Shown here: one piece after another, positions 2,205 through 36,431 of the stretch | Numbering within the stretch: position 1 is the first letter of the stretch | How the letters are laid out: every line of letters begins with the position of its first letter | DNA from: Lytechinus pictus | Lineage: Eukaryota | NCBI RefSeq assembly: GCF_037042905.1 | Contig: NC_087251.1 | Coordinates: 14,820,001 to 14,884,000 of the forward strand | Length of the DNA stretch: 64,000 nt | Direction of reading: 5' to 3' | The notes under the pieces: generated by a model | Databases searched by the model: none | The model's input: only the letters and a program-made list of their open reading frames with translations | What the model was told of the DNA's origin: nothing | Made by a program: the position numbers and the translations under genes

Positions 2205-5200
2205 CCATCATCATCATCACCATCATCATCATCACCTTCATCATCATCATCACCACCATCATCATCATCATCATCACCTTCATCATCATCATCATCATCA
2301 TCATCACCATCATCACCACCAGCACCACCTCCTCCTCCTTCCTCTTCCTCCTTCTTCCTCCTCCTCCTCCGCCTTCCTCCTCCTCCTTTTTCTTCTTCCT
2401 ATTCTTGTTCTTATTCTTCTTCTTCATCATCATCTTGTTCCTCCTCCCCCTTATCATCATCATCATCATTATAATCTTCATTAACATTTTTGTCACCATC
2501 ATCGTTATCACAATGCCTTCATGTATTCAATTCAATATCGTCAACACCATCAGTCCATAATCATTACCATCACTGTCATGTGTATTGTCTTTATCATTAT
2601 TTATCATTTTATCACCACCATCATCACTGTCATCATCATCATCTTCTCCTTCTTCTTCATTATCATCATCACTACTGTCATCATCATGTAATTTAAAAGC
2701 AAGCCAGGCTATGGTTTTAAACATTTTGGGACCTTATCCACTTCTCCTTCATTCAACTGTACAGTGAAATTATGAATGTGAATGTTTTACTTATCAAAAA
2801 AACTGTGCTGTAGGTCTACTTTCAAAATCATCAGCCTATAATAAGAGAATTATGGTCACATGAGGTATACTATTTAGTGTGTTTAACAAACCATGACAGA
2901 ATCAATACTTATGGCTGAACAGATCAACTTTCACATAGGGTTCACAAATGGAAAATAGACTTTGGCAAACATACATTTCAAAATAGTACTTTGTTTCTTT
3001 CCCAGCACTTTGTTCTGTTTAAGATGCCAAGTTAACAAAGACAATAAAATGCTGTTCAGTAAAAAGCATTGGACATGGCCTTGGGAACTGTGCTGAACAA
3101 TCAAAATCACTAGTTTATAGCAAAGATATGATATAAGGGAAAAAACAAGGCCTAGGCCCTACTATACCACGATCAATCATTTTTTTTCTGCTCAGAGGTC
3201 ATGTACATAATTATGAAGAGTTTTCAAACAAACAACTGTGCATGTGTGTATGAAATACATATTGGTCTGCCTTATTGCGGAACTTAACTGCTGTAAAACT
3301 CATGCATTAAAAATTATAGCATGTTCAGAAATGTTTGGCAGGAAATGCATATGTACCACAAATCATCAATCAAACTTTTAAAGGATTAGATAGCACAATT
3401 ACAGTGCATACAATGCCTATGGATTTTAAAGAAATTTTCACTGATTACGCTGACACTTGTTGAAAATTTCCATATAGATTTCATTCAACATTGAGCTGTA
3501 AATTAAGTGAACTTGGCTTTAAATCAACTACAAGTATATTTACTTGTGAAATTTAACAGAAGAAAAAAGGTGTTCTCACCCTCCAAAATAATAAGATTTT
3601 ATAAACAAGTGGAATGCCTCTGGCCGTCTCACCTGCATCACACGATTCAATATAGCAGCAGTGCTGATTTTGAAAACTACTATAACTCGCACAAGATGTT
3701 CAGTGATACTTGGTTACTCTTATTTCCACGTTTTATGAACTAGACCAATACACTTATAGAGATATGATGGCAATTCAACAAATACCCCCAACGTGGCCAA
3801 AGTTCTTTGACCTTACATGACCTTTGACCTTGATCATGTGACCTGAAACTTGCACAGGATGTTCAGTGATACTTGATTACTATTATGTCCAAGTTTCATG
3901 AATCAGATCCATAAACTTTCAAAGTTATGATGGTAATTCAACAGATACCCCCAATTCGGCCAAAGTTCATTGACCCTAAATGACCTTTGACCTTGGTCAT
4001 GTGATGTGAAACTCATGCAGGATATTCAGTGATACTTGATTAACCTTATGTATAAGTTTCATGAACTAGGTCCATATATTTTCTAAGTTATGATGACATT
4101 TCAAAAACTTAACCTTAGGTTAAGATTTTGATGTTGATTCCCCCAACATGGTCTAAGTTCATTGACCCTAAATGACCTTTGACCTTGGTCATGTGACATG
4201 AAACTCAGGCAGGATGTTCAGTAATACTTGATTAACCTTATGGCCAAGTTTCATGAACTAGGTCCATATACTTTCTAAGTTATGCTGTCATTTCAAAAAC
4301 TTAACCTCAGGTTAAGATTTGGTGTTGACGCCGCCGCCGCCGTCGGAAAAGCGGCGCCTATAGTCTCACTCTGCTATGCAGGTGAGACAAAAACCTTGTT
4401 ACCAAAATATACAGGAAGGTGTACATATAATAGAAGAGCCGTAGCAGAGCGGTCTTTAGTGCCAGACGAACCAAACCTGACCAAAGATCCTGTGCCCCTG
4501 AGCAAGGCATCTATAAAATTGCTCTTTTAATTCTTTAAAATTCTGATAGTGACATTAAAGGTCAGTCCCAGACGTAAATATTAATTACACATTTCCGAAA
4601 CAGACATGCAAAGAGTGATTGAAGAGTGCTAGCAGATAGATCCATAAAGTAAATATCAAATAGCCTTTATCCTCTCTGCATTCTATTGATTGAGTAAACA
4701 ATTCATCAACACCAGATGTTCGTTTTAATCGTATGTGGTGTAACTTGTCGTGATTCAAGAAATTAATGTAAAATGGGCACGAAGAACATTTCATGCATTA
4801 TCTTTTGTATGAAGTGAAAGTGTCAGTTTGTGTTTAAATAAAAAGACACAATCATCACCGACAATTCAAATTTATGTAAGTCAACAATGAAGTCCAATAA
4901 ATGTATTCACCAAAGTCATAGCAATTTTCAAGACTTTTTAGAACAGATATATGTAATCTACTATTTATATCTACCTCCTCTGAGTAGAACAGATTTGACT
5001 TCGACTTCGTTACACTGTATCTACTAGTCTATACTAGTTTAAGCCAATGGTGAATCAATATGCTCCTCATCATATTTTTATGAAATTCATATTTCATTTA
5101 AGAGAGAGACAGGGGGAGTTGGGGTGTTTTCATAAAGCTGATCATGAAGTTAGAGATCACTTTACATGTGAGGAGAATATTAAAAGCCTGGTAGGGTGCA

Positions 5201-20200: not shown

Positions 20201-23200
20201 TATTCCCCCCAGTTTTTAATATTCCCTTCTCCCCCTAATTTATGTAGTCACAGCCCCCCCTTTTCCTTGTTATTCAAACCTATTTTGCCGTTCTTCATAT
20301 GGTCAAGATTGTCCTACTTTACTTTTAATTACATACGATTAAGATTACTACAAATTTATCCCAAGGGACTTACCATTACAAGCTTTGCTTTTTAATAAGT
20401 CCCTCATTTTCATTTTCACATGCTAACTGTAATCTATAATTTGTCTAATTATCAAAATGTGTTTGGAACAAAAAGAATTATATATACTTTGACTATTTCC
20501 TACGAATTTGTTAATTAATTATTGAAGTATTCTTATGACACTTATTCTGTTATGTACATTCATACATGTACATGTATTACATAATCATTATTACATAATC
20601 ACCAGACATCTTTGTCATCTCATCTCATTCCTTATTGGTTTATCTTATGAATTGGGTTCTTACATTTTAGTTCGATCCTTCCATTTTCTTTAGTTTGATT
20701 GGTTGCTATTTCTAATTTAAATATTTATGTAAATTATAGAATGATTTGATTTTAGCTGAGGCAAAGCAGCCCAGATATTAAACAGTGCACTACCAAACTT
20801 CTTCGGTTTAAGTTCTCTTCGTTTTGCGTCTGTTTCACTTATTCCCCCTTCAGCATGATTGATTGAGTTTGTTGATTTAGAACTTCATTTATTTTCTACC
20901 TCCAAACATATAATTTTCTCAACCTTACAACTGGTGGCAGCGTCGGTTCGACACCTTCACGCTATTCTTCAACTTTCCTCGGTTCCACGATTCAGTTTTG
21001 TCTGCATGCTCATCCTTTATCATCTGCTTTAGGAATAAACTTTTACGAACCTCGTCTGTCTTTTGGTCTACCCGGTGCTTTCCAACAGCCATTCGTCTTT
21101 CTGCTCAACTTACCTGGTGAGTGACGACTCCTGTTTAGTCTGAGTACATAAACCTGCAGTACCTGGTCGAAGTGAAACCGCAATCATCTCTGAACTATAT
21201 CCCGAATACCTATATTTGTCTGCTACTGCCTCTTTATTCAGCCTGAAGACTCTCTTCACATCTTTAAGAGACTCTACTCCTTTCCACCTGAACATTTATT
21301 TTGCCACCATAACAATTTGCTGTGATTTCAGATCACTATGTCACGCAACTATTCTTCGGACACTAATGCCATGCTATCACGTCTAGATAGTTTGGAACGA
21401 GCCCTTCAACATCTTCAAGGCAATGTTACCCAACTTCAGGCATTGTTGTCCACATCTGCCCGATCATCTCCAACTCATGTTGCCGCCACGATGTGCAATA
21501 AGACAACACAGACAGAGCCGTCTCGTGTGTCTGCGCCAATGGACCTTGATAATCTCAACCACAAAGTAAGTGAATGTCAGAATGAGGACAGAAATATTTC
21601 AATGCTGAAATACTTCCTGGAACATGACATTAAACCCAAGACCAAGGAGATTGCTGATTTTGAGCCCCAAATGCGTCGACTTCTCTGGCAATACCAACGT
21701 TTCTTCCTGAAGGACGGCAAACTTTTCCGCAAACGAATGGCCTCTGACCGCATAACTGAACACCACCAACTCGTCGTTCCAGCAAACATGATTCCTGATG
21801 TCCTGAATACTTTCCATCCGCTGGATAATCACACAACATTAGAATGCTCAATTTCCACCATCTCTGATCACTTCTTCTGGCCTAGCATGAAGCGAGACAC
21901 TACTCAATTCGCAAGAACATGCAGCGCTTGTCAACTAGCACAAAGTCACGAATCATTAGCCAATCTGGACCAGATGCCAGCATCAGCCATCCGCACCGCA
22001 GTTTGCGCCATAACCGAACTAACGAAAGATTTCATCAGACGCACAGATCCACCTAGAAGTTTGAGACGGAAACGACATTGCAAGAATCGGCACAACAACA
22101 ACTTTCGCAAACCACCAGCAGATCTCCAACCACCACGTTCACCTCCGAGAGATTACCAGCCGCAATCACCAGAGAACCCCTGGAAAGATCTCTCTCACAT
22201 GCGCTCTTATTTCGCTCATCCAGACCATGACACATCCTCATCGCCAAGAGACTACCACCATTCGCGATCAACTCGTACAAGGGACCATCACCACTATCAT
22301 TCGCCACCAAGATACCGAGATTACTCACCTTCAAGAGAACTGTATCCTGAGAACCATACCATCAACTCACCAGATAGATGGAGAGACTCTTATATCAACC
22401 CACCAGATAGATTCAGAGACTCATCTTCCAGGTATACTTACCAACATTCCTCTCATGAACATTTCCCAGTTTGAACAATTACTCTTGAAATGAGAAACCC
22501 TTTAGTGAACTCGGTGCTCATATGTCATTTGCAAACTCTTCAAAATGTCAAGTCTTAATGATCATTGGTATGATTTTCTGATTCTATATATATATATATA
22601 AATGTGCAATTTTACAAGAAAACATTTTGCTTAAGAACCTTTTTTCAGAAGGTGCCAAGCATTTCATGTGCATTTACGTCTATTTTACTATGAAAGCAAA
22701 TATATATCGAGATGTTATGTATTTTTTATGTTCTCAAAATGCTTCAATAAAACCTTTTACAAGGGCATCATTTTAAAAAAAAAAAAATTGAACTTCAACT
22801 GAAAATTTCAATTTTCTCATACAGTACATAAATAGTCATATAAAAAGATTTGAATTTGTCTCCCCCCCCCCCCAAAAAAAAGGGACATCAAAAATTGTGT
22901 TTTATTGTCAAAATTACTCTCATATATTTTCACCTTCATTATAGCTCTTAAATCAAGTTTACTGAAGCATTCACTTTTGAAAAGTTTAGAAAACGTTTTG
23001 TGCTTATATCTCAAAGTTACGAAATTTCCTTTTTATGTCATCGATATGTTGATTGCATGTATAATGTTTGTGTTATAGAATATCTGTTCGTTTAACTCAA
23101 ATTGAAAATGAATTCTTTTAATTGAATACATTTATAAAAAAAAAAAAAAACCGAAATGTACTTATCAATTCAAAGTGTATGTTTTACATCGGCTATAGAC

Positions 23201-26019
23201 CTATAAAAAAAAAAAATCAAACTTTCTTGATGAACAAATATTCATGAACACAAGTTCCTGAATTTTGCCTGTTGATATTATTTTCATTGTACCTGGAGAG
23301 TCTAATAACTGCTTTTGAACAGAATTGTAATATTTATTCTTACATCTTATCAATATACCATACTTTTTATTGCTAAGGAAATATGTAATTTTTGTAAATT
23401 TTAGTCTTGCAACTACTAGGTTTGAAAGAAAACATGGATTTTAATGTTTATGCAGATATCTATATTTAAAATTCTTAATTAGTTTTCCTACTCCCTGTTT
23501 TGATGTCTTAAAGTAAAATTGGAAAAGTTAACTTAAATACATATTCGGCAGACCCACTCTGTTGAATTATTATTCTGCAGCAATTTTAGATTATTTGATC
23601 AACTTCAATATCTCAATATCTTAAAATTTCATTAGTATTTTATCTTGTGCTTTTTAATATTTACTATTCATTTGAGCTGTTACATTGATTTCATTTGTCT
23701 TGTAGTGCTCTCATATGAGTTATTGTTATTCCATTTTGTTAGTCCAGGAGATATCATTTTCCTTTTCCAGTTGAAAAAAAAAAGAAATCTTAGATAATTT
23801 GAAGAAAAAAATATATATATTCGATGATTAGTACAAATTTTATCTTTTCTGAAAAAAAGTTTAATTCTTTTTTTTTTCTTAATTGATATAGTAATTCATT
23901 TCATGTCATGCAAGTATAAGATATACATTGAAATTATTTGCATGTTCATTTATTTTTTTACTGAAGCACAAGTCTTTTTTTTTAATGAAATTACACATAT
24001 GATGCCAAAAATGAAAAGTTTAAAATTCTAGTAAGATTTTTTTCTTCTCCAAATTAATCCTTAATTCTCTCCTGGTCATCACATTTAGATATCAATTATA
24101 TCATTGTGTGATTTTTGTTTCAATATTATGTAAATAATGTTAGATGTTAATATTGTTCATATCTGGTTTTGCAAAAACTGTTTATTTTAGTTCTTTGATT
24201 TAAAAATTGAGGACAATTTTTTTGGAAGGAGAAAGTTTATGTAGGATGGTTATTTTGTCATTTTGCTATTTTGTCTATTTCCTTTATTCTTCAGCTGTTG
24301 TACATTTCCGTTCTGTCTAGACTTATGTTCATTTGCATTTCTTTTCAGCCTAAGGTTATTTGAGTTTAATGATATTCAGTTGTCATTCATTCATTCTTCT
24401 CTGAATGCCTTTCCTCCAATTCTCTTTTGTCATCTTCATTCCTTCTCTATTATCTCTTCAGGTGTTCCACTCATTCCATCCCTCACCTGACTCCTTAGTT
24501 TCTACTTCCATTATTACATAATCACCAGACATCTTTGTCATCTCATCTCATTCCTTATTGGTTTATCTTATGAATTGGGTTCTTACATTTTAGTTCGATC
24601 CTTCCATTTTCTTTAGTTTGATTGGTTGCTATTTCTAATTTAAATATTTATGTAAATTATAGAATGATTTGATTTTAGCTGAGGCAAAGCAGCCCAGATA
24701 TTAAACAGTGCACTACCAAACTTCTTCGGTTTAAGTTCTCTTCGTTTTGCGTCTGTTTCACTTATTCCCCCTTCAGCATGATTGATTGAGTTTGTTGATT
24801 TAGAACTTCATTTATTTTCTACCTCCAAACATATAATTTTCTCAACCTTACACTAACTGTAATCTATAATTTGTCTAATTATCAAAATGTGTTTGGAACA
24901 AAAAGAATTATATATACTTCGACTATTTCCTACGAATTTGTTAATTAATTATTGAAGTATTCTTATGACACTTATTCTGTTATGTACATTCATACATGTA
25001 CATGTATATATATGTTTGTTATGTTTATTATCAGAAAATGGAAGTGAAATAAACTAAACTGAAACTGAAACTGAAAATTACTTAGATACATCAATTTGTG
25101 TCGGACAAGGGTATCTTCTGTTGAAATATCAATGAAAGGTGTCTCTAAACTAATGGGTTCTAGATAAGGGAAATAATGAAAATTTAGATTTTATCCAGTT
25201 ATGTTTGTGAATCTTTAAAGTTTTTTCTCTTTTCTACCTCAAAAAGTACCGGTAAGCTCCATACATTAATTTTACTATCAGCAGCCTAATACATGAAAAA
25301 TTATTTGATCTCCATTTATATGATTTTAAGAAAAGTCATTCCGAAATAGAAGGTTCAGGTGATGATAAAGACTAAATATTTTTCCGATACTATATGTCGC
25401 GGACTTGAAAGTCAAAATTGCCTTTGTGAAACAGAAAGCGCTGATTTGTCGCCAATCTTCCTATCTCGAAAGAATGGCTCTAGGACATTCCTACCTATCC
25501 ATCATCTCATCATGAAACAGGCTCATGTTCTAGATGCATTAGAAACAATAAAAGATATCATTATCAATGGTTAGGAGTGAATTGTTTGTTTGGTTTACCG
25601 TTTAGCCTAGATTTGAAAGTTTGTTTGGAATCAAATTTTTTTATATTTTTAGTCACATAAATGAAATATTTTTGAGAAACTATTGAAATGATTAACATTA
25701 GAGAATAAGAAGTTACACATTTGAGATAATATCAACTTCAATTTTTTTGTGGAATAAAGAAAAAATCATGTTAAATCGTAAGTTATTACGTGCGCAGAAA
25801 TGCCCCCCCCCCCCCCCCCAATTCTATATCGGTCGACTACGGAGCTTCCACGCCGTCGCGCCCGGCCCTGCCGGTGAGGATGCCGCGCACATTTCACTCT
25901 AACAGTTAGGCCTACTCACCTGATGACTTTGGCGTAGAATGGTTATCAATTGCAAGACGAATCACATCTGTTCTACCACTTTCAACTGCTAGTTTAATTT
26001 GCTGAACAGTTTCCTCCAT
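1..26019 (-). CDS. Ankyrin-repeat protein, 5' part (gene continues beyond window start). Coding exons 26019-25920, 13066-12975, 5614-5457, 1083-953, 46-<1
   Basis: The exons have GT/AG boundaries and compatible phases. They join in frame to MEETVQQIKLAVESGRTDVIRLAID...HGNMLHLAAKLGNADVVRALLVSGVDPTIKD...QTAYDIA...VKQFLDSGLDINNKDEATGGNTALHWAASFSGLEIIKILLEHNADVNATNSDGTTP, which is clear ankyrin consensus (G-TPLH-AA--G---VV--LL--GAD-N). Confidence 0.88.
1157..1739. mobile_element. Non-autonomous DNA transposon (Kolobok-like MITE, TTAA|AGG...CCT|TTAA)
   Basis: Long imperfect TIRs (aggtcaagttcacccc / gggcggacttgtcct) flanked by TTAA. Similar copies at 6801-7330, 10634-11642 and 32492-33126. Confidence 0.75.
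1886..2690. repeat. (CAT)n/(CAC)n trinucleotide microsatellite with degenerate (CCT/CTT)n tail, intronic
   Basis: About 440 bp of near-pure catcatcat, followed by a degenerate continuation. It explains the poly-His, poly-Ser and poly-Met ORFs. Confidence 0.97.
3603..4393 (-). mobile_element. Helentron/DINE-1-like (pearl/Tsp-type) non-autonomous element with internal ~164-bp tandem repeats
   Basis: Subterminal inverted repeats gtctcacctgcat / atgcaggtgagac, a short palindrome and (GCC)n near one end, A/T-run flanks, and repeated 'tgacctttgaccttggtcatgtgac...' units. Confidence 0.75.
6801..7330. mobile_element. Kolobok-like MITE, same family as 1157-1739
   Basis: High similarity to the 1157-1739 copy, with a TTAA left flank. 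Confidence 0.75.
9513..9987. mobile_element. MITE, probably PIF/Harbinger type
   Basis: TIRs aggcggtttcaaaccgcctcga / tcgaggcggtctgaaaccacct around a GC-richer body. Confidence 0.7.
10634..11642. mobile_element. Kolobok-like MITE carrying a nested second TTAA-targeting MITE (10934-11330)
   Basis: The host matches 1157-1739. The insert interrupts 'cagtattaaacaatg' and is flanked by duplicated TTAA (10930-10933 and 11331-11334). Confidence 0.82.
17400..17502 (-). mobile_element. Terminal fragment of the Helentron/DINE-like family
   Basis: catttcaaaaacttaacc...gtcggaaaagtggcccctatagtctcgctctgctatgcgggcgagac matches the end of 3603-4393. Confidence 0.65.
19607..19997. mobile_element. hAT-type MITE with 8-bp TSD ATAATTAA
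   Basis: TIRs tagtaatgttgtcg / caacaacagcacta. ATAATTAA at 19599-19606 and 19998-20005. Repeated atgtcgacat motifs inside. Confidence 0.75.
20586..24852 (+). mobile_element. Non-autonomous Gypsy-type LTR retroelement: truncated 5' LTR 20586-20929, full 3' LTR 24240-24852
   Basis: 344-bp direct repeat (20586-20929 = 24509-24852) ending in CA. PBS tggtggcagcg at 20932-20942, complementary to the tRNA-Leu 3' end. PPT ggaaggagaaag at 24224-24235, followed by TGTAGG. Confidence 0.88.
21338..22474 (+). CDS. LTR-element ORF (378 aa): coiled coil + Gypsy integrase HHCC zinc-binding domain + Arg/Ser/Pro-rich tail; no RT, RNase H or DDE core
   Basis: QLVVP...VLNTFH----H...FFWPSMKRD...RTCSACQ is the Gypsy integrase Zn-binding signature. 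The ORF is uninterrupted and GC-richer than its flanks. Confidence 0.8.
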   Translation: MSRNYSSDTNAMLSRLDSLERALQHLQGNVTQLQALLSTSARSSPTHVAATMCNKTTQTEPSRVSAPMDLDNLNHKVSECQNEDRNISMLKYFLEHDIKPKTKEIADFEPQMRRLLWQYQRFFLKDGKLFRKRMASDRITEHHQLVVPANMIPDVLNTFHPLDNHTTLECSISTISDHFFWPSMKRDTTQFARTCSACQLAQSHESLANLDQMPASAIRTAVCAITELTKDFIRRTDPPRSLRRKRHCKNRHNNNFRKPPADLQPPRSPPRDYQPQSPENPWKDLSHMRSYFAHPDHDTSSSPRDYHHSRSTRTRDHHHYHSPPRYRDYSPSRELYPENHTINSPDRWRDSYINPPDRFRDSSSRYTYQHSSHEHFPV

Positions 26020-34540: not shown

Positions 34541-34956
34541 TTTATCTTGAGACAATAGTGTGAAGCGCCGCGCCCCTGCCCCACTGAACTGGAAATACGT
34601 ATTTCCAGTTCAGTGCCCTGCCCCACTGTAGTGCCCTGCCTCTTGCCCCCTGTCGAAAAACAAAGTAAAACAAAAATAATTTATTCACTCGAATATAGAC
34701 AGAATATATGAGTGACAAAACTATAAAATGGAATAATCCCTCTCATTTAGCTGTCTGTTAACAATCTTGTATTTTACATCTCACTCCCTGGATAGATATA
34801 GAGCGAGCGAGCAAAAAAATAGTTGAGAATTTAATCGTTGTAAAAAGATGAATCCTTTTTAAAAAAAGTGCTATTTATCGATAGAAAATCCCTTGTTTTC
34901 TTTGAAGAGAAAAAGGTAATTATCATTCACATGAATCACGTCACTTTGTCTCCGCT

Positions 34957-35979
<1,023 letters not shown>

Positions 35980-36431
35980 TCAGGGACCCATCTCACTCCC
36001 TGGATAGATATAGAGCGAGCGAGCAAAAAAATAGTTGAGAATTTAATCGTTGTAAAAAGATGAGTCCTTTTAAAAAAGTGCTTTTTATCGATAGAAAATC
36101 CCTTGTTTTCTTTGAAGAGAAAAAGGTAATTATCATTCACGTGAATCACGTCACTTTGTCTCCGCTGCGCTACATCACTGGTGAGCCGCCCGCATGAAGG
36201 CCAGTCCATTCATTATGTTTGGTTGTTTCTTTAATTCTTATCCTCATAATTGTTTACCTACCATGTAATAGCTCCATGCTTCTACCTATTCCGATAAACG
36301 TCATTCAAGTTTTCTAACTATGGACCTACTACTCTGAGTGATACCCTCCCATCGATCCGACGTGGATGCCTGTCAAGCGCATCACCCCCCCCCCCCCCCC
36401 GTAAGATTGTTTTGTAAACATCCTCGGGTCG

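Follow-up and report, generated by a model that had tools for sequence, protein, structure and literature searches.

A stretch of 64,000 nucleotides from Lytechinus pictus (NCBI RefSeq assembly GCF_037042905.1, contig NC_087251.1, positions 14,820,001 to 14,884,000 of the forward strand; hereafter the window, with positions counted from its first letter) contains a long terminal repeat (LTR) element whose single open reading frame (ORF) encodes 378 amino acids. The element is a member of a young, recently mobile, non-autonomous family of Ty3/Gypsy (Metaviridae-type) LTR retrotransposons. Its protein is an old chimera, maintained by selection, in which a long helix and a TQT motif precede the front end of a Gypsy integrase and a basic, disordered tail follows it. 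The reading favoured here, which we consider fairly probable, is that the protein joins the Gag-Pol/integrase assembly of a complete helper element through two integrase domains, the N-terminal extension domain (NED) and the HHCC N-terminal domain (NTD). The positions of all features are given in Table 1.

The 812-Mb genome assembly was searched with the DNA of the ORF, of the LTR and of the leader, the segment between the 5' LTR and the ORF. The ORF has 13 matches, 10 of which are full length, 95-100% identical and distributed over 9 contigs. The reading frame is open in all ten full copies (370-389 aa) and broken in two fragments; an AAC run and a 33-nt repeat unit have slipped, always in frame, and account for the differences in length. 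The original prediction, made from the window alone, had proposed a non-autonomous multi-copy family, and at least ten full copies with open ORFs bear this out; the ORF is neither single-copy nor broken elsewhere. The elements are about 4.0-4.7 kb long and are bounded by LTRs of 613-641 bp with TG...CA ends, inside which lie a TGG-type primer-binding site (PBS) and a polypurine tract (PPT). Each of the nine full copies outside the window is flanked by a perfect 4-bp target duplication. The paired LTRs differ at no position in seven copies and at one position in two, one of which also has two gaps. The 4-bp duplications together with the near-identical LTRs indicate very recent insertions, made by an integrase, of an element that has neither an integrase core nor a reverse transcriptase (RT) of its own. 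Genome-wide, the leader occurs only in the ten copies and in one old fragment of 84% identity, and the combined pattern of LTR end and PBS is found only in nine copies of the family.

Three LTR pairs that are 85-90% identical to the window LTR lie only 2.6-2.7 kb apart (C16:28505145/28507815, C4:19507644/19510371 and C12:25616780/25619354). A match to the ORF is absent from these short pairs among the candidates that were scored, and they may be ORF-less relatives.

The ORF, on the plus strand at 21338-22474, is open as earlier described, and the parts that had been read from its translation are all there: the heptad-like helix, NKTTQTEP, the HHCC region, RSLRRKRH, and the repeats SPPRDY, SSPRDY, SPPRYRDYSPSR, INSPDRWRDS and INPPDRFRDS. 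Integrase_H2C2 (PF17921) is the sole Pfam family in the ORF (aa 147-203, E 2.2e-10, 40.9 bits with a cut-off of 25.5); gag, protease, RT, RNase H and rve have no Pfam match in it. The gag and pol of an autonomous Gypsy element of the same genome were compared by tblastn with the internal region (20930-24239). The only match is that of pol residues 793-933 to 21503-21934 (33% identity, E 9e-19); no further gag or pol remnant was found there in any frame at E<=1. The two methods agree with the earlier statement that no capsid, protease, RT, RNase H or DDE core is encoded. Since the ORF lacks protease, RT, RNase H and the DDE core, both the synthesis of the cDNA and its insertion must depend on enzymes supplied by an autonomous Gypsy element, and the family probably borrows the machinery of such a complete element to move.

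The integrase-like part of the protein was assigned from its predicted structure. The AF2 model of residues 60-240, computed from 75 sequences, has a pLDDT of 92.8 and a pTM of 0.78, and its residues 71-203 form a predicted integrase NED followed by the HHCC NTD. In a Foldseek search rows 1-11 are all integrases of prototype foamy virus (PFV) or Ty3, with a probability of 1.00. VIA-align superimposes the model on residues 8-104 of PFV integrase (Z 8.7-9.5, rmsd 2.1-2.3, 85-94 residues) and on residues 17-138 of Ty3 integrase (Z 8.8, rmsd 3.6, 110 residues), and the next, unrelated row has Z 2.1. A profile built from the family plus pol sequences matches the Ty3 Gag-Pol of 7q5b at E 3e-32, and the ESM Atlas gave no usable match. 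The original prediction had spoken of a 'pre-integrase linker' and an HHCC finger; both are present, and by its fold the linker is the NED. In PFV and Ty3 intasomes, the NED and the HHCC domain make contact with the ends of the viral DNA and with the core of a partner subunit. Two further helices of the model (aa ~196-210 and 215-235) lie outside every structural match. The second contains AVCAITELTKDFI and sits where the catalytic core would begin.

Homologues with the same architecture are found among public proteins. A word-indexed search recovered P0001 (365 aa, 71-74% identity) and the cluster P0002-P0004 (417-494 aa, 40-44% identity). In their alignment RxDSLE, TQT, the zinc ligands H160, H165, C195 and C198, the 13 residues of AVCAITELTKDFI and the basic patch are invariant, and MDL and repeats of the SPPRD type are kept as well. 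When 1.84 billion representative sequences were searched with a profile, 10 clusters scored at E<=1e-30; a sharp step then follows, with Gypsy pols and gag fusions coming in at 1e-27. The layout is retained in members down to about 31% identity, and the AVCAITELTKDFI helix is kept in P0007, P0008, P0009, P0012 and P0013. In the Lytechinus genome P0002 has no match better than 41-61% identity, and its matches there are in part broken; the homologues therefore belong to other genomes. The degenerate P0002-like copies are found, for example, at C4:18855004 and C3:8949505.

Selection was measured by counting state changes among the 10 genomic copies, with a ratio of non-synonymous to synonymous sites of 3.5. 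The whole ORF has 19 synonymous and 31 non-synonymous changes (binomial p=0.008), and its mean pairwise omega is 0.48. The constraint is located in residues 1-235, where 14 synonymous and 14 non-synonymous changes give an omega of about 0.29 (p=0.0012); this part is under purifying selection. A dN/dS of about 1 across the copies had been named as what a decaying ORF would give, and residues 1-235 clearly depart from it. Nucleotide diversity is 0.010 in the 3' part of the LTR, 0.0084 in the leader and 0.011-0.012 in the ORF, and rises to 0.044, four times the value of the ORF, in 22475-23088. The leader is thus conserved at least as well as the ORF, and may hold packaging or dimerisation signals.

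The origin of the chimera is illustrated by two other elements of the genome. The first, here called the C1 element (G000:C1:37510338-37522400, minus strand, loci L056+L053+L055), is an autonomous Gypsy element whose two 532-bp LTRs are identical; it encodes a gag of 372 aa and a pol of 1438 aa, the latter followed by about 1.7 kb of non-coding DNA. Its gag is without a CCHC knuckle and consists of a helix followed by a SPxRY/R/S/Y-rich tail. The second, the sister family L054 (G000:C1:29831714-29835496, minus strand), has a 569-aa ORF at 1132-2841 of that stretch, and at least four open frames of 578-586 aa of this type are present in the genome. The order of the L054 protein is gag N-terminus, coil, AGTQTD, NED (the pre-integrase region), H2C2 and a basic tail, and the first 98 residues match the C1 gag with 49% identity (E 9e-28). 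L054 and the C1 element also agree in their LTRs (95% identity over 368 bp) and in the first 14 bases of the PBS, and about 80% identity is seen in parts of the 3' non-coding region. With these common LTRs, the C1 element already suggests itself as the helper of the L054 type.

The L054 protein aligns with residues 24-367 of the window ORF (24% identity, E 6e-25). The pols of the genome are colinear with residues ~56-203 of the ORF at 27-33% identity (up to 35% among the matches listed), and the tblastn segment of the autonomous pol aligns with residues 56-199. Since L054 has the intermediate state, in which a gag N-terminus, coil, TQT, NED and H2C2 are joined, the architecture is the product of an internal deletion of gag-pol that has arisen, or persisted, in several non-autonomous lineages. 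The split from pol is old, because the nearest pol is only about 30-35% identical. An origin of the window coil from gag is suggested by its MAFFT alignment with the L054-type coil. The original prediction had held that the element is not a simple deletion derivative. By origin it is one, being colinear with gag and pol; the claim stands in the sense that the deletion is old and selected rather than a recent accident. Two candidate homologies were given up in the course of the analysis. Homology of the tail to the gag tail was dropped, as BLASTP gave no significant match, and the likeness is one of composition only. The equation of AVCAITEL with the pol strand FADIAEL, first made by eye, was reduced to 'same position'.

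The TQT motif lies about 15 residues past the long helix, within a stretch of low model confidence (aa 36-68). It is found at the aligned place in all 12 public members that cover the site, and P0005, P0007 and P0008 have two sites. It is also present in 10/10 genomic copies and in 3/3 of the gag-N fusions. Among 98 other H2C2 representatives with enough upstream sequence, nine have a TQT within the 70 residues upstream of the extension domain, where about 1.8 would be expected from the overall TQT frequency of the same proteins. The autonomous pols of the genome have T[NY]QTQPEN or a similar sequence at this position. The occurrence in gag-N fusions, the enrichment in H2C2 proteins and the similar sequences in autonomous pols mark the TQT as a feature of the clade that became fixed in the derived proteins.

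TQT is the anchor of peptides that bind the dynein light chain LC8, and the genome encodes a canonical, intronless LC8 of 89 aa. A complex predicted from two LC8 chains and residues 38-80 of the ORF scored 0.62, compared with 0.06 for the best control; of 78 solved complexes 51 attain this mark, as do 2 of 108 mismatched pairs. At least 60% of contacts are common to the runs, the pLDDT of the partner is at least 51, and residues 50-59 and 61 of the ORF are placed on the canonical LC8 groove. The structure prediction with LC8 that had been proposed earlier thus passed its controls, as a prediction. It supports a likeness to LC8 motifs, not binding. For comparison, DYNLL1 is reported to bind HIV-1 integrase (PMC6171947, citing Jayappa 2015).

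The genome has 19 Dynein_light (LC8) matches, on C2 (16.58-16.63, 29.40 and 31.51 Mb), C11 (23.28-23.32 Mb), C6 and C10. Eighteen of the 19 span nearly the whole model (1-3 to 86) in a single open frame and are intronless. Most of these LC8-like genes lie in two tandem clusters, an unusual expansion.

None of the indexed data sets that contain the element is recorded as RNA. RNA was sought in three raw rRNA-depleted RNA-seq runs with the same species label, of which about 6% each was used. The numbers of reads on the element are 114, 134 and 11. The first mate maps to the plus strand in almost every pair of the two positive runs. The read depth is 2-17 from 20586 to ~22660 and almost zero at 22780-24120, and no introns were seen in these reads. 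A contig covering 20801-22608 was obtained from a run guessed to be RNA. The reads represent strand-specific transcription of the LTR-ORF part only and are no proof of expression of the ORF. In one run (X20), 13 reads with 11 start places join 22632-22660 to 20917-20929, the last 13 bases of the LTR, and then continue into unplaced sequence.

Together, these results are consistent with the following course of events. The coil would form a parallel dimer of the ORF protein, which host LC8 may clamp at the TQT motif. The NED and the basic and tail region would bind nucleic acid, and the NED-NTD would join the Gag-Pol/integrase assembly of the helper. The RNA or cDNA of the parasite might in this way be carried into helper particles and into the intasome. 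Docking on the helper integrase, already proposed in the original prediction, would be a step of this course. An extended version, which we advance only tentatively and think more apt to be wrong than right, is that a long-lived parasite lineage has turned the integrase front end into a trans-acting, LC8-clamped coiled-coil dimer of NED-NTD modules, with a tail that binds nucleic acid, which inserts itself into the intasome or Gag-Pol lattice of the helper and steers it to the parasite cDNA. Since some autonomous pols likewise have a TQT between RNase H and integrase, LC8 would then also be a host cofactor of integrase dimerisation across the Gypsy clade.

Several observations weigh against the favoured reading. 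No helper was identified: an autonomous Gypsy element with the same LTR ends and PBS, which the original prediction had called for, was sought through the leader, through the LTR (40 of 256 candidate relatives scored) and through the pattern of LTR end and PBS, and each search returned the window family only. No pol match lies beside the LTR relatives of 83-86% identity among the scored candidates, with one coincidental exception; this relative (85%) is located just upstream of the autonomous C1 element, whose own LTRs are different. The closest pol in the genome is only ~30-35% identical over the common part. The tail (aa 236-378), with 5 synonymous and 17 non-synonymous changes, has an omega of about 0.96 and its constraint is not significant, and changes seen in a single copy (12 synonymous, 22 non-synonymous) do not clearly differ from common ones (7 and 9). 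The RNA reads are strand-specific, and had the library been of the most usual type, they would run antisense to the ORF. On the structural side, the AF2 model of the whole ORF, computed from five sequences, has a pLDDT of 39, with helix 5-40 and the low-confidence stretch 36-68, and the Foldseek E-values (3.6e-3 to 2.3e-2) are all above 0.001. The LC8 result may reflect likeness to solved LC8-peptide complexes, and peptides are outside the calibration of the score. BLASTP of the ORF with the C1 gag reached a best E of 0.42, which is not significant, and MAFFT did not place AVCAIT exactly at the pol strand mentioned above.

Among the alternatives, the one that survives best is that the protein is a minimal substitute for Gag. 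It would act in cis only, as a packaging or nucleocapsid-like factor, with the coil multimerising, the tail binding RNA and the zinc module serving as a nucleic-acid finger; it would enter helper particles by contacts of the gag type and play no role at the integrase. The C1 gag, with its helix, its tail of similar composition and its missing CCHC knuckle, resembles such a protein, and the L054 sister family retains a real gag N-terminus. There is also a precedent in plants, where TR-GAG elements are non-autonomous LTR elements whose ORF is a GAG precursor (PMC4350172). The window family, however, is without the gag N-terminal domain and has neither a Pfam gag match nor a significant BLASTP match. 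Selection best keeps the NED-NTD fold and the helix that follows it, which are parts of integrase, while the tail, the presumed RNA binder, evolves with an omega of about 1. A Gag substitute is for these reasons rather unlikely.

An interfering role is more doubtful still. An isolated integrase multimerisation part that lacks the catalytic core could act as a dominant-negative decoy and poison the integrase or the particle assembly of the helper. Ty1 has a capsid-derived, self-encoded restriction factor (10.1101/741611), and the window protein shares with this p22-type factor that it is a shortened structural protein of retroelement origin with the potential to affect complete elements in trans. 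The Ty1 factor is an inhibitory capsid fragment of an autonomous element, whereas the fragment in the window is derived from integrase and is carried by a separate, actively transposing, non-autonomous lineage. The family has transposed at least nine times with canonical integrase signatures, so that the helper works in its presence, and the gene lies in a multi-copy mobile element rather than at a fixed host locus.

It is very improbable that the ORF is a neutral relic, that is, a recent chance in-frame deletion of gag-pol that is open only because the copies are young. The copies are indeed very young, the tail has an omega of about 1, and the indels are slips of repeat units in multiples of three. 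A chance deletion would not persist in the way this layout has: about 10 clusters keep it, some as little as ~31% identical, and other genomes have it too; the omega of 0.29 for residues 1-235 and the old split from the nearest pol also speak against it. A related concern, that the tail might be out-of-frame junk, is met by the distant homologues, which retain an SPPRD-type tail. Least credible of all is a domesticated, integrase-derived host gene that happens to lie between repeats, for which we take GIN1-type genes as the model: conservation under purifying selection would fit, but the ten dispersed copies on nine contigs each have an LTR pair, PBS and PPT, nine of ten have a 4-bp duplication, and the RNA reads are without introns.

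The copy in the window differs from its relatives in its ends. The 344-bp repeats at 20586-20929 and 24509-24852 are 100% identical, as had been seen by eye. The length of 344 bp, however, is not that of the LTR: the true family LTR is represented by the complete 613-bp 3' LTR of the window, and the 5' LTR has lost its first 269 bp. The window copy is a 5'-truncated element within a 155-bp target duplication. The truncation, the 8-bp filler and the 155-bp duplication, compared with the 4-bp duplications of the nine other copies, indicate that its insertion was probably aberrant, of a one-ended or repair-mediated type, and not a normal integrase event. The PBS and the PPT flank the ORF as originally noted; the primer of the PBS is presumably tRNA-Leu, and a tRNA scan of the window found no tRNA genes. 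The stretch 3' of the ORF is AT-rich, again as described (GC 0.307 across 22001-24000), and 23088-24091 is substituted in one subfamily. The basic patch may be a nuclear localisation-like or nucleic-acid-binding segment, and the tail that contains it is composed of P (15%), R (15%), S (14%), H (10%), D (9%) and Y (7%).

Table 1. Features of the LTR element and its ORF in the window (U3, R and U5 are the parts of the LTR; aa, residues of the ORF)
Feature	Position	Strand	Description	Basis
Target-site duplication, left copy	20423-20577	+	155 bp; in this aberrant copy only	99% identical (1 mismatch) to 24853-25007
Filler at 5' junction	20578-20585	+	8 bp (tacataat); repeats LTR bases a few positions on	Sequence reading
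5' LTR, truncated	20586-20929	+	Final 344 bp only (approximately the last part of U3, then R and U5)	Identity to 24509-24852
Leader (5' untranslated region)	20930-21337	+	408 bp	98-100% identical among 10 copies; nucleotide diversity 0.0084
PBS	20932-20946	+	TGGTGGCAGCGTCGG; TGG-type, starts two bases past the LTR end	
ORF	21338-22474	+	Single ORF, 378 aa (coordinates include the stop codon)	Open in 10/10 copies
Long helix, putative coiled coil	21350-21457	+	aa 5-40; RxDSLE motif	Low-confidence AF2 model; motif kept in homologues; aligns with coil of gag-N fusions
TQT anchor	21506-21514	+	aa 57-59, in disordered linker aa 41-68	Invariant in homologue alignment
Predicted integrase NED and HHCC NTD	21548-21946	+	aa 71-203; H160, H165, C195, C198	AF2, structure alignment, Pfam
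AVCAITELTKDFI helix	21998-22036	+	aa 221-233; most conserved stretch of the family	13 invariant columns; helix in model
Disordered tail	22043-22471	+	aa 236-378; SPPRD/SPDRW-type repeats	Disordered in model; SPPRD-type tails in homologues
Basic patch	22055-22093	+	RSLRRKRHCKNRH; aa 240-252	Basic cluster kept in homologues
AT-rich long non-coding region	22475-24223	+	Follows the ORF; AATAAA at 22746-22751	
PPT	24224-24235	+	GGAAGGAGAAAG	Similar PPT and LTR start in autonomous C1 element
3' LTR, complete	24240-24852	+	613 bp, TGTAGG...CCTTACA	
Target-site duplication, right copy	24853-25007	+	155 bp; directly follows the 3' LTR	

Elsewhere in the window, arrays of a ~163-bp repeat are located 45 kb apart at 3667-4392 and 48596-50205, and tandem arrays of short period (8-15 bp) at 1706-2560 and 34880-36209 give rise to spurious long ORFs.

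The family can be compared with several known systems. Nearest to it among the described kinds are TR-GAG and BARE2, non-autonomous LTR elements of the gag-only type. Like BARE2 and TR-GAG, the window family is a short LTR element that has a PBS, a PPT and one conserved ORF, encodes no pol enzymes and needs an autonomous partner. Unlike these elements, whose ORF is GAG, it has no detectable capsid, the core of its protein is the predicted NED and HHCC domain accompanied by an LC8-type motif, and its host is not a plant. From the non-coding TRIM and LARD elements it is distinguished by its conserved and selected 378-aa ORF. Residues 71-203 have the same predicted fold as the N-terminal integrase region in the Ty3 intasome (7q5b) and the PFV intasomes (3oy9 and 4e7k), with the HHCC residues kept and with colinearity to the Gypsy pols of the genome. 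In contrast to the Ty3 and PFV integrases, the ORF has no catalytic core or C-terminal domain; it carries a coil in front and a basic disordered tail behind, and is encoded on its own by an element without RT. Another parallel is the L054 type, represented among public proteins by P0016 and P0018, in which coil, TQT, NED, H2C2 and a basic region follow one another as in the window protein and whose ORF is the only long one of a 3.8-kb stretch starting with an LTR. The window family differs from L054 in the absence of the ~100-aa gag N-terminus and of a likeness in LTR and PBS to an identifiable autonomous element.

With respect to LC8, Panoramix, a component of SFiNX, is reportedly a client of LC8 (DYNLL) with TQT anchors next to coiled coils. 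The window protein resembles such clients in having a TQT in a disordered stretch a short distance past a long helix and tandem sites in three members of the family; binding is here a prediction. In the literature searched, which covers subscription journals thinly, no account was found of non-autonomous LTR elements whose ORF fuses gag with the integrase NED/NTD, and none of an LC8 motif in the pol of a retrotransposon or in derivatives of such a pol.

Non-autonomous LTR elements are usually either non-coding, like TRIM and LARD, or gag-only, like TR-GAG and BARE2. Here a parasite lineage has long retained, across several genomes, a protein that is built from the DNA-end-binding and multimerising domains of integrase and carries a motif for the host hub LC8. 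If the protein joins the machinery of a helper, the family would be a natural experiment on the integrase NED and NTD acting in trans; it would then inform how hyperparasitic retroelements secure a share of helper particles, and whether metaviral integrases use LC8. The L054 type and the C1 element, with their common LTRs, offer a concrete helper-parasite system for comparison.

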